A stretch of DNA of 64,000 nucleotides, taken from assembly GCA_965197525.1 (NCBI GenBank), contig OZ240211.1, positions 1,376,001-1,440,000 on the forward strand, written 5' to 3'. The stretch's first letter is position 1. Each line of letters opens with the position of its first letter. Positions 44,659 to 50,325 of the stretch are shown here, one piece after another. Origin of the DNA: Nitrosopumilus sp. (GTDB lineage Archaea; Thermoproteota; Nitrososphaeria; Nitrososphaerales; Nitrosopumilaceae). Under the pieces are notes generated by a model. The model was not told where the DNA came from and made no database searches. It was given only the letters and a program-made list of their open reading frames with translations. The position numbers and the translations under genes are program-made.

Positions 44659-45024
44659 ATGTCTGTTAAAGAACAATTTATTGAAAATGCTAGACAAGGC
44701 AAAGTATTGGCTCATAAATGCACTAGTTGTGAATTATTACATCTCTCTACGGTATATTATTGTCAAAAGTGCGGTAGTAGCAAGTTTGAAGATGCTATAT
44801 TAAACGGTGTAGGCTCTATTGCTACTTATACTATCATAACTGTAGCTCCTGACGGCTTTGCCAAGTATACACCATATGCCTTTGTTGTACTTGCATTAGA
44901 TGATACAGCTTTAAGAATCTCGGGATTTATGGCAGGAATTGCTACTCCTGATGACTTGCCTGTAGGAACTAGAGCTAAAATTACTGGTTTTGACGAGCGT
45001 GGTATTATAATTGAAAAACAGTAA
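44659..45024 (+). CDS. DUF35 Zn-ribbon/OB-fold thiolase partner
   Basis: C-x2-C..C-x2-C, G.IATYT, PYAF.V..LD; ATG 44659. Confidence 0.88.
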   Translation: MSVKEQFIENARQGKVLAHKCTSCELLHLSTVYYCQKCGSSKFEDAILNGVGSIATYTIITVAPDGFAKYTPYAFVVLALDDTALRISGFMAGIATPDDLPVGTRAKITGFDERGIIIEKQ

Positions 45025-45093
45025 AATAATTTACCCTAATTATTAAAAAAATCCAAAGTACATTTTAATTATTTTGTATATCTGATTATTTTT

Positions 45094-45255
45094 ATGTCAG
45101 TAGAAATTATTTGTGGAAAATGCGGTGAAAAGATACATAACATGAAGATGCTCAAATCTTTGAAGGATGTACTAAATACATCCGATGGCAAATGTCCATC
45201 ATGCGGCCAAAAACTTTCTACAGCTGAGTTTTCACTTGACGTTCAAGAAAACTAA
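45094..45255 (+). CDS. 53-aa CPxCG-type zinc-finger microprotein (not in ORF track)
   Basis: MSVEIICGKCGEKI...GKCPSCGQKL... Confidence 0.75.
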   Translation: MSVEIICGKCGEKIHNMKMLKSLKDVLNTSDGKCPSCGQKLSTAEFSLDVQEN

Positions 45256-45306
45256 TTTCAAAAACTAGTTTGAATGCATGTAAAAACATCCTCGTCGTAG
45301 TCTAGA

Positions 45307-45426
45307 TGATGGATCGACCCCTTGTGAAACATGTGCTTCGCGCACTTTAGTTTGAATGGGGCAATCCGAGCTGCTGCGTTCCTGTGCTTCGCGCACTGAT
45401 AGGTGATTGCAGCCTCCGATCCATCA
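45307..45426 (+). ncRNA. Candidate bridge RNA of the IS110 element
   Basis: 10-bp closing stem (45307-45316 / 45417-45426) enclosing two stem/internal-loop/hairpin domains with identical GTGC-TTCGC-GCAC caps; loop arms match the target and donor sites. Confidence 0.8.
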
Positions 45427-45440
45427 AAAACAATCCGCAA

Positions 45441-45448
45441 GGAGGTGA
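45441..45448 (+). promoter_or_regulatory. Shine-Dalgarno GGAGGTGA of the IS110 recombinase
   Basis: 8 nt upstream of ATG 45457. Confidence 0.7.
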
Positions 45449-45456
45449 TAAAAAGG

Positions 45457-46557
45457 ATGAGAAATATTGGAATAGACATTAGCAAGAGAAAATGCGTAGT
45501 ATGTGTAATGGATGACAAGGGAAGAATACTAGAGGAAACTACATATGACAATACGCTAGAAGATGCAAAAGAGTTTGCAGGCAGGATGAAAAGAGAGTAC
45601 GGCAGGAGAAGAGGACAGTGCCGTGCTGCATGCGAGACTACAGGAAACATGTGGCTCAAGACATTTGAGGCATTTGAGGAACACGACATACCAATCCAGC
45701 TTGCCAACACCTACAAGATGAAGATAATATCAGATACCGACGTCAAGACGGATCCCATCGATGCACGAAAGATTGCCAACATACTTCGTGTAGAGATGAT
45801 TCCCCAGTGTTATGTGGCGCCACCTGCGTTGCGTGATGCCAGAGAGCTGCTCAGGTACAGAATAAGCATGGTCCAGGCAAGGACTGCACTTATCAACTAT
45901 ACACACGGTCTGCTTGACAAGTACGATGTAAGACTGAACGTCTCAAACATGTACAGCAAAAAAGCCATCGGACTGCTCTCACATACAGAACTGAAAAGAC
46001 CAAACGACAACCTGATACTGAAGAACTGTGCCAAAAGAATTGCACATGTCACAGAAGAGATAACAAATGTCGAAACAGAGATAGACAAACAGGCCGCAGT
46101 AAACGATGATGCAAGACTGCTTATGAGCATGACAGGACTGGATGTATTTGCATCAATGCTTGTCGTATCAGAGATTGGGGACATATCAAGATTCAAAACC
46201 CCCGAACACTTGGTCTCATGGGCAGGCATGTGTCCCACCGTCTACCAATCAGGTGATGTAACACATCATGGCCGCATGAAAAAGGCAGCAAACGGAAGAA
46301 TAAACTGGATACTTATTCAAGCAGCAAACGTGGCAGCAAGACACGATGACAAGTTAAAGGAGTTCTATGAGAGATGCAAAAAAAGACATGGCGGCAAACA
46401 TGTGATTACAGTAACACATGTGGCAAACAAGATGATACGAATCATTTGGGCCATACTGACCTTCAGGGAACCGTACAAGTCACGCAATGTACAAAGATAT
46501 GGCAGAAAGATGAAGAGAATGAACAGTGTTCGACAGTCTATGCAGGGCACAGAATAG
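45457..46557 (+). CDS. IS110-family DEDD recombinase/transposase (366 aa)
   Basis: IGIDISK, ACETTG, KTDPIDA (D-E-D-D); C-terminal domain with TGLD, YQSG (Ser), KKAANGRINWIL; no frameshift. Confidence 0.95.
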   Translation: MRNIGIDISKRKCVVCVMDDKGRILEETTYDNTLEDAKEFAGRMKREYGRRRGQCRAACETTGNMWLKTFEAFEEHDIPIQLANTYKMKIISDTDVKTDPIDARKIANILRVEMIPQCYVAPPALRDARELLRYRISMVQARTALINYTHGLLDKYDVRLNVSNMYSKKAIGLLSHTELKRPNDNLILKNCAKRIAHVTEEITNVETEIDKQAAVNDDARLLMSMTGLDVFASMLVVSEIGDISRFKTPEHLVSWAGMCPTVYQSGDVTHHGRMKKAANGRINWILIQAANVAARHDDKLKEFYERCKKRHGGKHVITVTHVANKMIRIIWAILTFREPYKSRNVQRYGRKMKRMNSVRQSMQGTE

Positions 46558-46745
46558 CCAGCCAGTCACACATCCGTTGCAGTTTTGTTCCTAGCGATAG
46601 CTTTAAAAATATACACGTGTATTGTAGGCGTGGATCGAAGGCCAAATGGAAACCACGCGTGGCTGTGCCCGGATGTTTTAACATAGGTGTTTCATAACAT
46701 GCCACAGTTCTGACCCGATTGTATAGCATCTAGCCCATACTTTCA

Positions 46746-47816
46746 TCATACCATTGAGATCACCCTCTGAGTTATGTCTACGAACTGGTTGTAGCGCTGG
46801 ATCTTTAACGCTATCTCTTGAATAATGTTATCCATTGTTTTTGCCCTTACCGAACTTCCAAATATTCTCTTGAACGCAGAGAAGAATATCTCCACCTGCC
46901 ATCGGGAACCGTATTCCGCACGTTTTTTCCACTCGTTTTGGTTTTCCGCACGTTCCTTGATATCCATCTCATGGAATTTGGCAAGGCTTGTAGTGCCGCC
47001 ACCCAGCTGGTCAAGCGCTGCAATACCGCGTTCCCTGCTTATCCCCATTGCCTTGTATTCTGCATTGCGTCTTATCCTGATGATAGGTGTAATGCCGTAC
47101 TCTTTGCATATCTGAAAATTCTCCCTGCTGTCATATCCTGCATCTGCCTTGATCTTAATTTTAACATGATCTGGCGGTGGCCCAGTACCTGCAGCCATTA
47201 CTGTTGCGCGTCGTACATCTGGATCTATTCCCTTGTTCCTCAGTGCCTGTCTTATCAGGGGCTCGAACTGTGGGGAATCACCAATCTTTTCGTCAGTTAC
47301 CGTGAATCCAAGCACCCGCATGGTGTCCTGCTGTATCATGACACTGAGTCTTATGAAACCTGACTTGGTCTTTATCTTGTATTTGTATCGTATGTAGTCG
47401 CCTTTGGCAGACGGGGACATGCCTGTTCCATCTATGATGATCTGCAACACACTGTCTTTGCTCCTGACGGTTATGGTTCTGTCTGTAATGGATGTATCAA
47501 GACTCTTCGTTCTTCTCCACAGGGTAACGTGATCAGGTGCGTTTTCCTCACCCAGTGCAGCTATTGCCATTCCTTCCACACATCTGAATGCAATGCCCAG
47601 CTGTAGACGTATTCCGATTATGGCCATTATCAGGCACTCTGGATAGATGAACGGATGACCGTTTTTGCCTGCATTCATCCGTTTAAGTTCATCTACCATG
47701 TTGTCAGGAAGAACCAAATGTATCATCTTTCCTCGTTCCACATATCTTGCATCATTTTGCGCATGGCTCATGTGTAGCCGCGATTTTTGTTTGGTTCTGG
47801 TACCATCATGCGTCAT
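46746..47816 (-). CDS. IS5-family DDE transposase
   Basis: GHPFIYP, PDHVTLWRR, IIIDGTG (D), KADAGYD (D), RWQVEIFFSAFKRIFG (E). Confidence 0.9.
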   Translation of the reverse strand: MTHDGTRTKQKSRLHMSHAQNDARYVERGKMIHLVLPDNMVDELKRMNAGKNGHPFIYPECLIMAIIGIRLQLGIAFRCVEGMAIAALGEENAPDHVTLWRRTKSLDTSITDRTITVRSKDSVLQIIIDGTGMSPSAKGDYIRYKYKIKTKSGFIRLSVMIQQDTMRVLGFTVTDEKIGDSPQFEPLIRQALRNKGIDPDVRRATVMAAGTGPPPDHVKIKIKADAGYDSRENFQICKEYGITPIIRIRRNAEYKAMGISRERGIAALDQLGGGTTSLAKFHEMDIKERAENQNEWKKRAEYGSRWQVEIFFSAFKRIFGSSVRAKTMDNIIQEIALKIQRYNQFVDITQRVISMV

Positions 47817-48165
47817 ACCCGTCTACCTCCAGAACGCAGCACATAACTAATTTCGATTAACTTGCTGGAGAAAAGAAACTCACACGTAACATTAAATTGT
47901 CTTCCTGTGAAATATGGTTGGTGCGGATATCCTTTCATTTGTTGTGATCTGAAAGGATATTACGCTCCAGCTCTTTAAATGCGAAAGTTAGTTGCAGTTA
48001 ATCTGCAACTTGAATATCTATGACACTGTTTGTGGCAGGTTATGAAACAAACTATCAAAAACAAAACTAATAAAACAATTTTTCTATTTTTCAAAACAAT
48101 TATTTAAAAATATTTGAAATTATCCAGTCACAAGTCTTATTTACTCCTTTCTTTCAGAAACAACA

Positions 48166-50325
48166 ATGAAATCTAGTGACGATTTTGATGATGACGATAT
48201 AGATGATGATTTTGATGATGACGATATAGGTGATGACGATATAGGTGATGATCTAGATTCTGAACGAAGTGGCATTATGCAATCTCAGTCAAAGCGTGTT
48301 AAGATGATCTTTTCTGTTATGGCAAGTCCAAACAGAATCGATATACTTCGAATACTAAATTCTAAAGGCCCATTAACTTACTCTGAGTTAAAATCACATG
48401 CCGGATTCAAATCAAAAAAGGAAAGTGGCAAATTTGCATACCATTTGAGAAAATTATTACGTCAGTCACTTGTAGCGCTAAACAAATCTGAACGACGTTA
48501 CACTATTACAAATCTTGGAAAACTTGTTTTGAGTTTAGCACGACAAATTGAAGAAAGATCTATTATTGAAAGTGGCAAAATGTATGTTCGCACATCATCT
48601 GACTCAATTGAAGAGTTTAATTCACATAAAATAATTCAATCTCTAGTTCGTGAGGGAGGCCTTGCAGTAGAACTAGCACAAAAAATTACTGAAGAAGTCG
48701 AAAACCGGATTTACAAATATCAGACCACTTATCTTACCGGTGCCCTAATTCGAGAGATGGTTAATTCGGTGTTATTAGAACACGGTCATGAAGAGTATCG
48801 GAACAAACTTGCCCGTCTTGGATTGCCTGTATATGACGTTGAAGAGATGATCTCTAACTCAGATAGTGTTGATAATGGAGCCGAAGATCTGTTGTTTAGC
48901 ACAGGACAGCGAGTATTCACTGAGCATCTTTTAACAAACACGTTATCTAAGGATATAGCCGATTCTCACCTTTCTGGTGATTTACACATTACTAATCCTG
49001 GAATTTGGTCTATTATTCCAGATACAATATTTGTTAACGTTAAAGACTTGATCGAACACGGAATTGATTTTGGTGGGAAATACCTTGATGTATCAAGAAT
49101 TTCTGCATCAAAACATCTTGATGATATTGCAAGTTCATTATCTATAATTATCTCTCTTCTTTCAAAAGAAGCTTCTCAAGAAATTGTACTTGACGGATTT
49201 GTTTCACTGTTTACCAAACATCCAAAATTTTTACCAGATCTTGAACAAAAATTAACGAATATTCTTGCGACTATATCAACAACTTCCAAATATAATAAAA
49301 CTGGCACTGTTATTTCAATTCGTCTACACTTAGGAACTGATATGAAAATTGTCCGTTCCATCATCAATACGTATAGAAACTATACAAAGATGACACCAAT
49401 TCCAAGAATTGGTTTGATAATTGACGTAGATAAAGGAAAGCTAACTGATGTATCGCAAACATTATCTGAAATAATTTCACTTGGTGGCAAGATAACGTTT
49501 GCTAAAGATCAAACATCCAGTTACGGTATTACAAACAATTTTACAAAAACTTCTAGTCCACTCTCAATTGCATTACAATCTGTTTCAATAAACCTTCCAA
49601 GATTAGCATTTGAATCAAATAAAGATGAAACTTATTTTCGTGCAAGACTTGCACTATTAATGAAGCCTGTCCTAATTTCAATGGCATCAAGAAAAAAAGG
49701 GATCTCTGATCTTACCAGACGAGGCCTTAACCCAATTCTTGCTAAAAATACACAACATCTGCAAAGAAGTTCTGTCTCTCTTACTATAAACTTGATAGGA
49801 CTCAATGAAGCTGTTTTTAATATACTTGGACTATCTGATGATAGCCAAGGACGGGATATTCTTCACAAAGTAATTGAAACTGCAGTCGATGTTGGTGCTA
49901 AAAAAGGTAAAGAATTGGGCGAGACTGTATCTATCTCCATGATTGAATCTGACGGTTCTATTCGTTTTGCAGCCCTTGATAGTGAAAAATATGGCAAGAA
50001 CTCTGCTCCAAATCTAATGAAGGACGACTTTTACTCTCAAGGAATTGTATTTACTGCCTCTGATATCTCTGATCTTACTAGTAAAGACGAATCAATTCTT
50101 GAATGCAACAAACTCTTTAAATTACTTAACGGTGGACTACTTGTAACACTAAAGATTGACAACCGCGCCAAGGTTGAGGAGATTAAAAAATCTATAGAGC
50201 AGGCATCTAAACTCTTACCTTCCTTTAAACCTGTAAGACCTAGTATAGTTTGTGGTGAATGCGGTTTTAAAGACGAACCATTTGAAGAGAAATGCCCTCG
50301 ATGTAAATCGTCTTATATTATCTGA
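48166..50325 (+). CDS. ArsR-like HTH + ATP-cone + NrdD (class III RNR)-like fusion lacking the glycyl-radical motif
   Basis: ASPNRIDILRIL..FAYHLRKL..RYTITNLG; VRTS..IEEFN..KI ATP-cone; SGDLHI, SINLPRLA, IGLNEA; ends at C-x2-C..C-x2-C with no R(I/V)xGY. Confidence 0.8.
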   Translation: MKSSDDFDDDDIDDDFDDDDIGDDDIGDDLDSERSGIMQSQSKRVKMIFSVMASPNRIDILRILNSKGPLTYSELKSHAGFKSKKESGKFAYHLRKLLRQSLVALNKSERRYTITNLGKLVLSLARQIEERSIIESGKMYVRTSSDSIEEFNSHKIIQSLVREGGLAVELAQKITEEVENRIYKYQTTYLTGALIREMVNSVLLEHGHEEYRNKLARLGLPVYDVEEMISNSDSVDNGAEDLLFSTGQRVFTEHLLTNTLSKDIADSHLSGDLHITNPGIWSIIPDTIFVNVKDLIEHGIDFGGKYLDVSRISASKHLDDIASSLSIIISLLSKEASQEIVLDGFVSLFTKHPKFLPDLEQKLTNILATISTTSKYNKTGTVISIRLHLGTDMKIVRSIINTYRNYTKMTPIPRIGLIIDVDKGKLTDVSQTLSEIISLGGKITFAKDQTSSYGITNNFTKTSSPLSIALQSVSINLPRLAFESNKDETYFRARLALLMKPVLISMASRKKGISDLTRRGLNPILAKNTQHLQRSSVSLTINLIGLNEAVFNILGLSDDSQGRDILHKVIETAVDVGAKKGKELGETVSISMIESDGSIRFAALDSEKYGKNSAPNLMKDDFYSQGIVFTASDISDLTSKDESILECNKLFKLLNGGLLVTLKIDNRAKVEEIKKSIEQASKLLPSFKPVRPSIVCGECGFKDEPFEEKCPRCKSSYII

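Follow-up and report, generated by a model that had tools for sequence, protein, structure and literature searches.

What placed one insertion sequence inside the end of another, and was the position chosen by the incoming element? The question is raised by a locus in a 64,000-nucleotide stretch of DNA from Nitrosopumilus sp. (contig OZ240211.1, positions 1,376,001 to 1,440,000), hereafter called the window, which belongs to a single-contig genome of 2.21 Mb to which all genome-wide counts below refer. By direct reading of positions 45000-48300, we found that a 1415-bp IS110-family element (45273-46687) interrupts the left terminal inverted repeat (TIR) of a 1372-bp IS5-family element. The best explanation, to which we assign a probability of roughly 0.85, is a bridge-RNA-guided insertion of the IS110 element into the IS5 left TIR by a lineage that habitually uses the ends of IS5-family elements and of miniature inverted-repeat transposable elements (MITEs). 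We base this on the anatomy of the locus, the matches between guides and flanks, their covariation over copies and relatives, and the recurrence of the arrangement in other genomes. The composite locus is made up as follows.

45258-45265 (no strand): left 8-bp target-site duplication TCAAAAAC of the IS5 element, which recurs at 48055-48062.
45266-45272 (+): outer 7 bp of the IS5 left TIR, TAGTTTG, which form the left target; the last two bases are the TG core, and the left target guide at 45348-45354 has this same sequence.
45273-46687 (+): IS110-family element of 1415 bp, with a TG core on each side and no duplication of its own; four genome copies have the same ends.
45277-45291 (+): left subterminal inverted repeat CATGTAAAAACATCC of the IS110 element, with its partner at 46671-46685 (about 14 of 15 bases).
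45457-46557 (+): IS110-family DEDD recombinase, 366 aa (PF01548, PF02371, NF033542).
46688-46705 (+): right-hand TG core (46688-89) and then the inner part of the IS5 left TIR, TTTCATAACATGCCAC (46690-705); the span reads TGTTTCATAACATGCCAC.
46746-47816 (-): IS5-family DDE transposase, 356 aa, intact (PF01609, PF13737, NF033579).
48032-48054 (-): IS5 right TIR, intact, with an empty 14-nt target at 48041-48054 (reverse complement TAGTTTGTTTCATA).
48055-48062 (no strand): right 8-bp target-site duplication TCAAAAAC of the IS5 element.

The interrupted end can be rebuilt precisely. With TG at both IS110 junctions (45271-72 and 46688-89), removal of 45273-46689, or equally of 45271-46687, yields TAGTTTGTTTCATAACATGCCAC, and this rejoined left TIR is identical at 22 of 23 positions to the reverse complement of 48032-48054. 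The same 15 nt are present in inverted orientation in the right IS5 end (48040-48054), where they are unoccupied, 1.35 kb from the occupied site. Both transposase frames are uninterrupted (IS110, 45457-46557, plus strand; IS5, 46746-47816, minus strand), and the left junction is spanned by contigs from public sequencing runs, for example by an 8.3-kb contig over 44700-45295. An earlier note on this DNA, made from the sequence alone, had proposed the TIR and duplication reconstruction, the open transposase frames, and the vacant second target, and each of these statements was borne out. An independent check comes from a second IS5 copy in the genome (1061630-1063001), which is uninterrupted, carries its own 8-bp duplication ATGTAAAC, and encodes a 356-aa transposase 100% identical to that of the window copy. 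Because this uninterrupted copy has exactly the reconstructed ends, we conclude that the IS110 element entered a pre-existing IS5 end.

The whole composite lies between the two copies of the 8-bp duplication, which shows that an IS5-type event made the site but does not date the IS110 insertion. This would fit a course of events in which the IS110 element entered the IS5 element elsewhere and the 2.8-kb composite then transposed as a whole, its split end still working. However, the genome holds no second composite, and its only other full IS5 copy is without an IS110 element. DDE transposases normally require the terminal bases to be contiguous with the inner binding site, and the split end breaks this contiguity. 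We therefore regard whole-composite transposition as very improbable, and favor insertion of the IS110 element into the IS5 end at its present place.

Family assignment of the two elements is straightforward. The IS110 recombinase matches the N-terminal DEDD/RuvC-like domain PF01548 and the C-terminal Tnp domain PF02371 at E = 3.4e-24 and 5.9e-24, respectively, and scores 230.8 bits (cut-off 140) against NF033542, 'IS110 family RNA-guided transposase'. Residues D7, E60, D99, D102, and S265 are invariant in the recombinase alignment and, as aligned, appear to correspond to those of the GIDVSK, KTDxxDAR, and YESG motifs of ISCro4 (9t56). The insertion itself has the hallmarks of the IS110 family: no target duplication, a shared short core, and a site that is specific in sequence and orientation. 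The host transposase matches PF01609 and PF13737 and scores 155.2 bits (cut-off 140) against NF033579, 'IS5 family'; this DDE transposase, the 22/23 agreement of the TIRs, and the 8-bp duplications at both copies place the host element in the IS5 family.

The 5′ non-coding region of the IS110 element folds into an outer stem around two internal-loop modules, a fold that is the same on either strand, and the helices are maintained by compensatory changes in relatives. We interpret this region as encoding a putative bridge RNA with the following predicted parts.

45308-45425 (+): putative bridge RNA with two loops, each capped by a GTGC-TTCGC-GCAC hairpin (45333-45 and 45384-96); proposed from folding, alignments, and pair counts.
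45323-45331 (+): right target guide TGTGAAACA, reverse-complementary to the right flank TGTTTCA(T)A save for a single G·T wobble.
45348-45354 (+): left target guide TAGTTTG, identical in sequence to the left flank.
45375-45382 (+): right donor guide TGCGTTCC, complementary to the left-end start AATGCA with one wobble.
45399-45405 (+): left donor guide ATAGGTG, equal to the right end ATAGG plus the TG core.

On the 3′ side of module 1, the window copy (c1) carries TAGTTTG, equal to the left flank; on the 5′ side it carries GTGAAACA, reverse-complementary to TGTTTCA(T) of the right flank but for a single G·T wobble. Module 2 has ATAGGTG, equal to the right end plus the core, on its 3′ side and TGCGTT, complementary to the left-end start AATGCA, on its 5′ side. 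The right donor guide covaries with the left end in relatives, reading TGTGTT with AACACA in Cenarchaeum copies and TGTAT with AATACA in a clade from soil, in which the left donor guide ATAGATG goes with a right end of ...ATAGA-TG. Judged by sequence, fold, and covariation, the region would thus qualify as a bridge RNA, with a target and a donor loop that match the flanks and the element ends.

Because G·U pairs are frequent in the conserved stems when read on the sense strand, the bridge RNA is most likely transcribed in the direction of the recombinase. Two pairs in the donor-loop stem are U·G in 16 of 20 and G·U in 9 of 20 sequences, respectively, and the overall count on the sense strand is 19 G·U versus 7 A·C. 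We considered an antisense RNA and rejected it, because the sense G·U pairs would turn into A·C mismatches and because the core would fall at the 5′ end of both guides, unlike in the IS621 bridge RNA. Note that RNAalifold, run on the 20-sequence alignment, recovered the structure in part, with the soil-clade hairpins and the outer stem misaligned. An Rfam search with the IS110 5′ non-coding end identified no family, its sole weak match being a chance one inside the coding region.

A natural comparison is offered by the other copies in the same genome, which holds four full IS110 copies (c1 to c4) that are 96.7-100% identical and have the same ends. Their 184-nt 5′ non-coding ends are identical save for element positions 52, 53, 76, 78, and 116, and inside the loops they differ just at positions 52, 53, 76, and 78, where the changes fit the flanks. 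At positions 52 and 53, in the right guide, the changes fit the right flanks or TIR variants. Positions 76 and 78, in the left guide, are changed to give AACTTTG in c3 and c4, whose left flanks read AACTTTG and AACTCTG, respectively. The guides (left / right) and the sites, with a caret at the junction, are these.

c1 and c2: guides TAGTTTG / GTGAAACA; sites TAGTTTG^TTTCAT (c1) and TAGTTTG^TTTTGG (c2; compatible via wobble pairs).
c3: guides AACTTTG / AGGAAACA; site AACTTTG^ATACCT.
c4: guides AACTTTG / GGGAAACA; site AACTCTG^TTTCCC.

The 12-mer predicted by the c1 guides, TAGTTTGTTTCA (TAGTT-TG-TTTCA), has three other exact occurrences on both strands of the genome, all of which are IS5 TIRs and all of which are empty. 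Since all other occurrences are TIRs of the two IS5 copies, the match between guide and target is not a matter of chance. Copy c4 sits 7 bp inside the TIR of a MITE of about 130 bp with at least six other copies, and its guides equal the MITE TIR consensus AACTTTGTTTCCC. The guides of c3 equal the TIR AACTCTGTTTCCTA of a second IS5-family element (genome 77289-78651 and 935705-937067, with 8-bp duplications at both), and c3 itself lies in a near-cognate unique site outside any insertion sequence end. Three guide variants therefore address three IS5-family or MITE end variants of the same genome, and two of the four full copies, c1 and c4, lie in such ends with equal offset and orientation, c2 and c3 being near-cognate insertions.

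We also compared guides with their own flanks in 16 elements drawn from this genome, other genomes, and metagenomes. Agreement averaged 4.79 of 5 positions on the left (2.79 when permuted) and 4.82 of 6 on the right (3.23 when permuted), and no permutation out of 10,000 gave values as high as these. The permutation ignores relatedness, yet the signal holds between clades with 48% protein identity. The claim of the earlier note that the IS110 element is programmed to the IS5 TIR is thus supported, both by the match of the bridge-RNA guides to the site and by the changes in sibling guides that fit their own flanks. Its expectation that other IS110 copies would mostly occupy IS5 ends held in part: two of the three others lie in near-cognate unique sites and the third in a MITE end, yet all three guide variants still match IS5-family or MITE ends.

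Several further observations concern these copies and their landing sites. TG is present at both junctions of c1 to c3 and at the left junction of c4, whereas the right core of c4 (genome 1600711-1600712) is CG, unlike its left core and the MITE consensus, which are TG; this could be a post-insertion point change and might hinder precise excision. The MITE family (about 130 bp, TIR AACT(C/T)TGTTT(C/T)CCAAT) is related in its TIR to the second IS5-family element (77289-78651, 935705-937067), and copies are found at 827065-827194, 2176442-2176573, 1235494-1235623, 1256153-1256276, 1147871-1147992, and 1099759-1099873, one MITE copy having an 8-bp duplication GTAACTAT. Inverted TIR-like pairs of about 90 bp (TAGTGTGTTTCATAAC and variants) at 1340661-1340751, 1832866-1832956, 223310-223400, and 1966307-1966397 resemble miniature derivatives of the window IS5 element; they are one or two bases off the IS110 target, and none is occupied.

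Eight relics in the genome, all decayed, derive from the IS110 left end and bridge-RNA gene; they lie at 1712322, 161836, 2186892, 2177465, 1812747 (minus strand), 474710, 1892607, and 352456 (minus strand). Relics 1712322 and 161836 have in common a 584-bp unit, 83% identical, that runs into unrelated sequence; relic 1812747 has the left flank TAGTTTG and is broken exactly past its own left guide, beside an IS5-like end; and relic 1892607 is joined to an IS5 fragment at base 82 of the latter. A non-autonomous mini-IS110 element was sought among these eight relics, and none has a recognizable right end. A 57%-identical relative in the same genome (L025, 1456871-1458400) has a bridge RNA with a run of about 13 G and a purine-rich insert between the loops; its left flank (element at 1456962), at a provisional boundary, matches its left guide poorly.

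Relatives with 38-50% protein identity, from soil Nitrososphaerales and other Nitrosopumilaceae, are also found in IS5-family ends. In soil Nitrososphaerales metagenome-assembled genomes (MAGs) and metagenome contigs (48-50% protein identity), the element is followed by a right flank of TG and then CA(T/C)AACTC. An IS5-family transposase directly adjoins five of these elements (L035, L036, L040, L045, and L049); L044 has a right flank that agrees with an IS5-type TIR interior, and an adjacent transposase was not detected. The left flanks of the soil clade have ...TTGTTG as their last bases and change together with the left guide (TTTGTTG, CTTGTTG, TTTTGTTG, TCTGTTG, and TGTGTTG). The double occupancy that the earlier note had predicted exists in a relative rather than at the window locus: in L036, one IS5-family element has an IS110 copy in each end, in inverted orientation. 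The rebuilt TIR of L036, TAGTTTGTTG^CATAACTC, is homologous to the window TIR, TAGTTTG^TTTCATAAC, with the crossover 3 bp further in. The outer flanks of this composite (L036:1810-5744, Nitrososphaerales MAG CAVOHZ010000010) are without a clear 8-bp duplication, and the segment between the two IS110 copies may be inverted or rearranged.

A relative at E <= 1e-60 occurs in 22 of the 301 genomes of our Nitrosopumilaceae sample. In genome G101, copies L072 and L093 (TAGTCTGTTG^CACAACTGCC) lie in IS5 ends with the IS5 transposase adjoining, and in G235 the right flank of copy L084 (TGCCCAACTCAT) matches an IS5-type TIR interior, an adjacent transposase not being detected. Whereas c1 and c4 lie 7 bp inside the TIR, the offset is about 10 bp in the soil clade and the G101 copies, which sit in TIRs of the TAGTyTGTTG^CAyAACT type. 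All TIR insertions seen have the IS110 right end facing the interior of the host insertion sequence. By our own tally, IS5-family or MITE ends account for about 15 of about 38 readable right flanks across the clade. Sponge metagenome contigs that align over window positions 45196-48047 include relatives of the IS110 as well as of the IS5 element, with many of them falling in the 90-99% identity bands, and related elements are therefore present in sponge-associated archaea.

Some details of individual relatives are recorded here. The left flank of L072 (1400-1470) has a 15-bp tandem duplication (CCTAATAGTCTGTTG twice) that comprises the outer TIR part and adjacent bases. In L073 (G074) and L086 (G126), an in-frame TAG occupies one shared position of the alignment (...IIL*QYV... 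and ...LTL*QHT...), where other G074 copies are open. Apparent internal TAG stops in the Cenarchaeum copies were rejected as such, each being the natural stop codon of a slightly shorter protein.

Not all observations favor guided insertion by a lineage that habitually uses IS5-family and MITE ends, and the following weigh against it. In this genome, one of the four IS110 copies lies in an IS5 TIR and one in a MITE TIR, c2 and c3 being in unique DNA, and three perfect IS5 targets are still empty. Many relatives of the family lie in other, IS5-unrelated sequence, and the Cenarchaeum copies lie in a different small palindromic repeat. In addition, the order of the guides within each loop is reversed relative to IS621, so that the IS621 structural model may not transfer in detail.

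Another account would make the element a repeat-seeking generalist, whose guides drift and whose copies multiply when they match any multi-copy harmless sequence, IS5 ends being one frequent outcome. The Cenarchaeum copies (L032-L034), about 20 bp inside an 85-bp palindromic repeat, are in keeping with it, as are the IS5-unrelated flanks of L070, L071, L073, L074, L076, L077, and others and the unique sites of c2 and c3; moreover, IS110 elements often target repetitive elements (PMC11208160). A generalist does less well with the recurrence of IS5-family ends, which serve as targets in no fewer than four separate sub-lineages (38-50% and 100% protein identity to c1) from marine and soil hosts. 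The TIR motif, TAGTTTGTT(T/G)CATAAC, is homologous across these sub-lineages, and all three guide variants of this genome match IS5-family or MITE ends. We consider the generalist account possible but rather unlikely, and retain guided insertion by a lineage that habitually uses IS5-family and MITE ends.

The proposed sequence of events would be as follows. An IS5-family element (1372 bp, 23-bp TIRs, 8-bp duplication) would first have landed between two host genes. Later, a circular IS110 copy would have been recombined into the left TIR of this element by its own DEDD recombinase, guided by the bridge RNA encoded in its 5′ non-coding end. The donor-binding loop would read the joined ends of the element (CATAGG-TG-AATGCA), and the target-binding loop would read TAGTT-TG-TTTCA, which makes up the outermost 12 bases of the IS5 TIR. 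At the common TG, strand exchange would then put the IS110 element 7 bp into the TIR, with its right end toward the IS5 interior and with no duplication. A few base changes in the guides would shift the lineage between TIR variants, and TIRs and MITE ends probably provide abundant, harmless landing sites. Expression of the RNA and the circular intermediate are steps that we infer. In the contigs of four public runs, no circle junction, restored site, or joint skipping the IS110 element was seen; contigs drop rare variants, and this result is uninformative either way.

It is reasonable to suppose that the interrupted IS5 copy has lost its mobility in cis. The earlier note had gone further and proposed a reversible brake, in which the insertion silences the IS5 element, precise excision re-arms it, and the IS110 element so regulates IS5 activity. 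The split TIR does put 1.4 kb between the terminal 7 bp and the remainder, and such an end should not work; both transposase genes are intact, and IS110 elements can excise, restoring the left target-right target (LT-RT) junction (PMC13626964). Yet just one of the four full-length IS5 ends is occupied, and the interrupted element still encodes a transposase that could serve the intact copy in trans. Excision by IS621 is reported at about 1% in vitro versus about 70% for insertion (PMC13626964), and according to a preprint, single-strand copy-out predominates, after which the donor site is still occupied (bioRxiv 10.64898/2026.08.31.748434). The restored junction was not seen, contigs being the only data searched. 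Because the other IS5 copy is intact with an identical transposase, because the interrupted copy still encodes its own, and because IS621 excision is rare relative to insertion, we judge regulation of this kind to be quite unlikely, and keep to guided insertion that probably leaves the entered copy immobile.

Taken more broadly, the data may reflect, at somewhat less than even odds, a long-standing association of one parasite with another across Nitrososphaeria. One IS110 lineage may have tracked IS5-family and MITE ends over divergence to about 40-50% recombinase identity, retargeting by few bridge-RNA changes as the TIRs diverged, with a guide order permuted relative to IS621, and may disable the IS5 copies that it enters.

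The mechanism is not new, since bacterial precedents exist, and the locus is a clean archaeal example of it. Its points of interest are modest, namely the natural retargeting of guides between TIR variants in one genome and the permuted guide order. It provides a natural, readable case of bridge-RNA retargeting, with four guide bases and three transposon-end variants, and extends the bacterial habit of IS110-type landing in IS5-type ends to ammonia-oxidizing archaea, both marine and soil. The locus also offers bridge recombinases from mesophilic archaea, with TG as their core and a changed order of guides, that could be tried out as recombination tools. For annotators, IS5 copies that seem to be without one end in these genomes may simply be interrupted.

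Archaeal IS110 recombinases were already known as a group; our literature search found no paper on the association of IS110 elements with IS5 ends in Nitrososphaeria. The earlier note had drawn an analogy to bacterial elements that target TIRs, naming IS4321 and IS5075. The analogy holds, but a closer precedent is the insertion of IS1383 into IS1384. IS1383 (IS110 family) is reported to target specifically the inverted repeats of IS1384 (IS5 family) in Pseudomonas putida H (Muller, Lauf & Herrmann 2001, Mol Genet Genomics 265:1004; cited in PMC11208160; families from PMC5141477). As in the window, an IS110-family element there has an IS5-family terminal inverted repeat as its specific target. 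That system is bacterial, whereas here the host is an ammonia-oxidizing archaeon, the guides are readable, and siblings are retargeted to TIR variants; the two are likened here by their target.

IS4321 and IS5075, of the IS1111 group, are reported to insert in the TIRs, 38 bp long, of Tn21-family transposons (Partridge & Hall 2003, J Bacteriol 185:6371). Like other TIR-targeting IS110/IS1111 elements, they resemble the window element in that they enter the TIR of another transposon at a fixed position and in a fixed orientation, carry subterminal inverted repeats, and, as L036 illustrates here, can occupy both ends. Their target, however, is a Tn3-family TIR, whereas here it is an IS5-family TIR. 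The subterminal inverted repeats (about 11-13 bp in the IS1111 group) are present in the window element at 45277-45291 and 46671-46685, with about 14 of 15 bases matching. In the IS1111 group, a long non-coding region with a seekRNA lies downstream of the transposase (PMC11187229); in the window element, by contrast, the guide RNA (45308-45425) lies upstream of the recombinase, and the 3′ non-coding end is just 130 bp (46558-46687).

ISPpu9 and ISPpu10, also of the IS110 family, sit in repetitive extragenic palindromic (REP) sequences of Pseudomonas putida (PMC12288879; bioRxiv 10.64898/2026.03.19.712850). They resemble the window element in using multi-copy harmless repeats as landing sites and in having orphan copies of the RNA gene, to which the eight left-end relics correspond here. 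Unlike in the window, their targets are host REP elements and not the ends of other transposable elements.

The best-described reference is IS621, whose bridge RNA is 5′-encoded and has two loops for target and donor pairing (Durrant 2024, PMC11208160; Hiraizumi 2024, PMC11208158). In the IS110 bridge-RNA logic, left guides pair with the bottom strand and right guides with the top strand, with the core in each (PMC11208160), and the window guides follow this logic, core included. Other likenesses are the DEDD recombinase, the 5′-encoded RNA with two pseudo-symmetric loops for target and donor, the tolerance of G·T wobbles, and a natural target that is a genomic repeat. In contrast, just the C-terminal Tnp part of the recombinase aligns (residues 210-341, E = 1.1e-08), the core is TG in the window and CT in IS621, and the window target is an insertion sequence end rather than a REP. 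In IS621, the left target guide (LTG, A50-U58) lies 5′ of the stem-loop and the right target guide (RTG, G77-80) lies 3′ (PMC11208158). The window RNA departs from this layout in that, on the strand supported by the G·U pairs, the right guide (45323-31) precedes the hairpin and the left guide (45348-54) follows it, with the donor loop arranged alike (45375-45405). Nevertheless, each guide has the core at its 3′ end in both RNAs, so that the geometry is compatible and the order alone is permuted.

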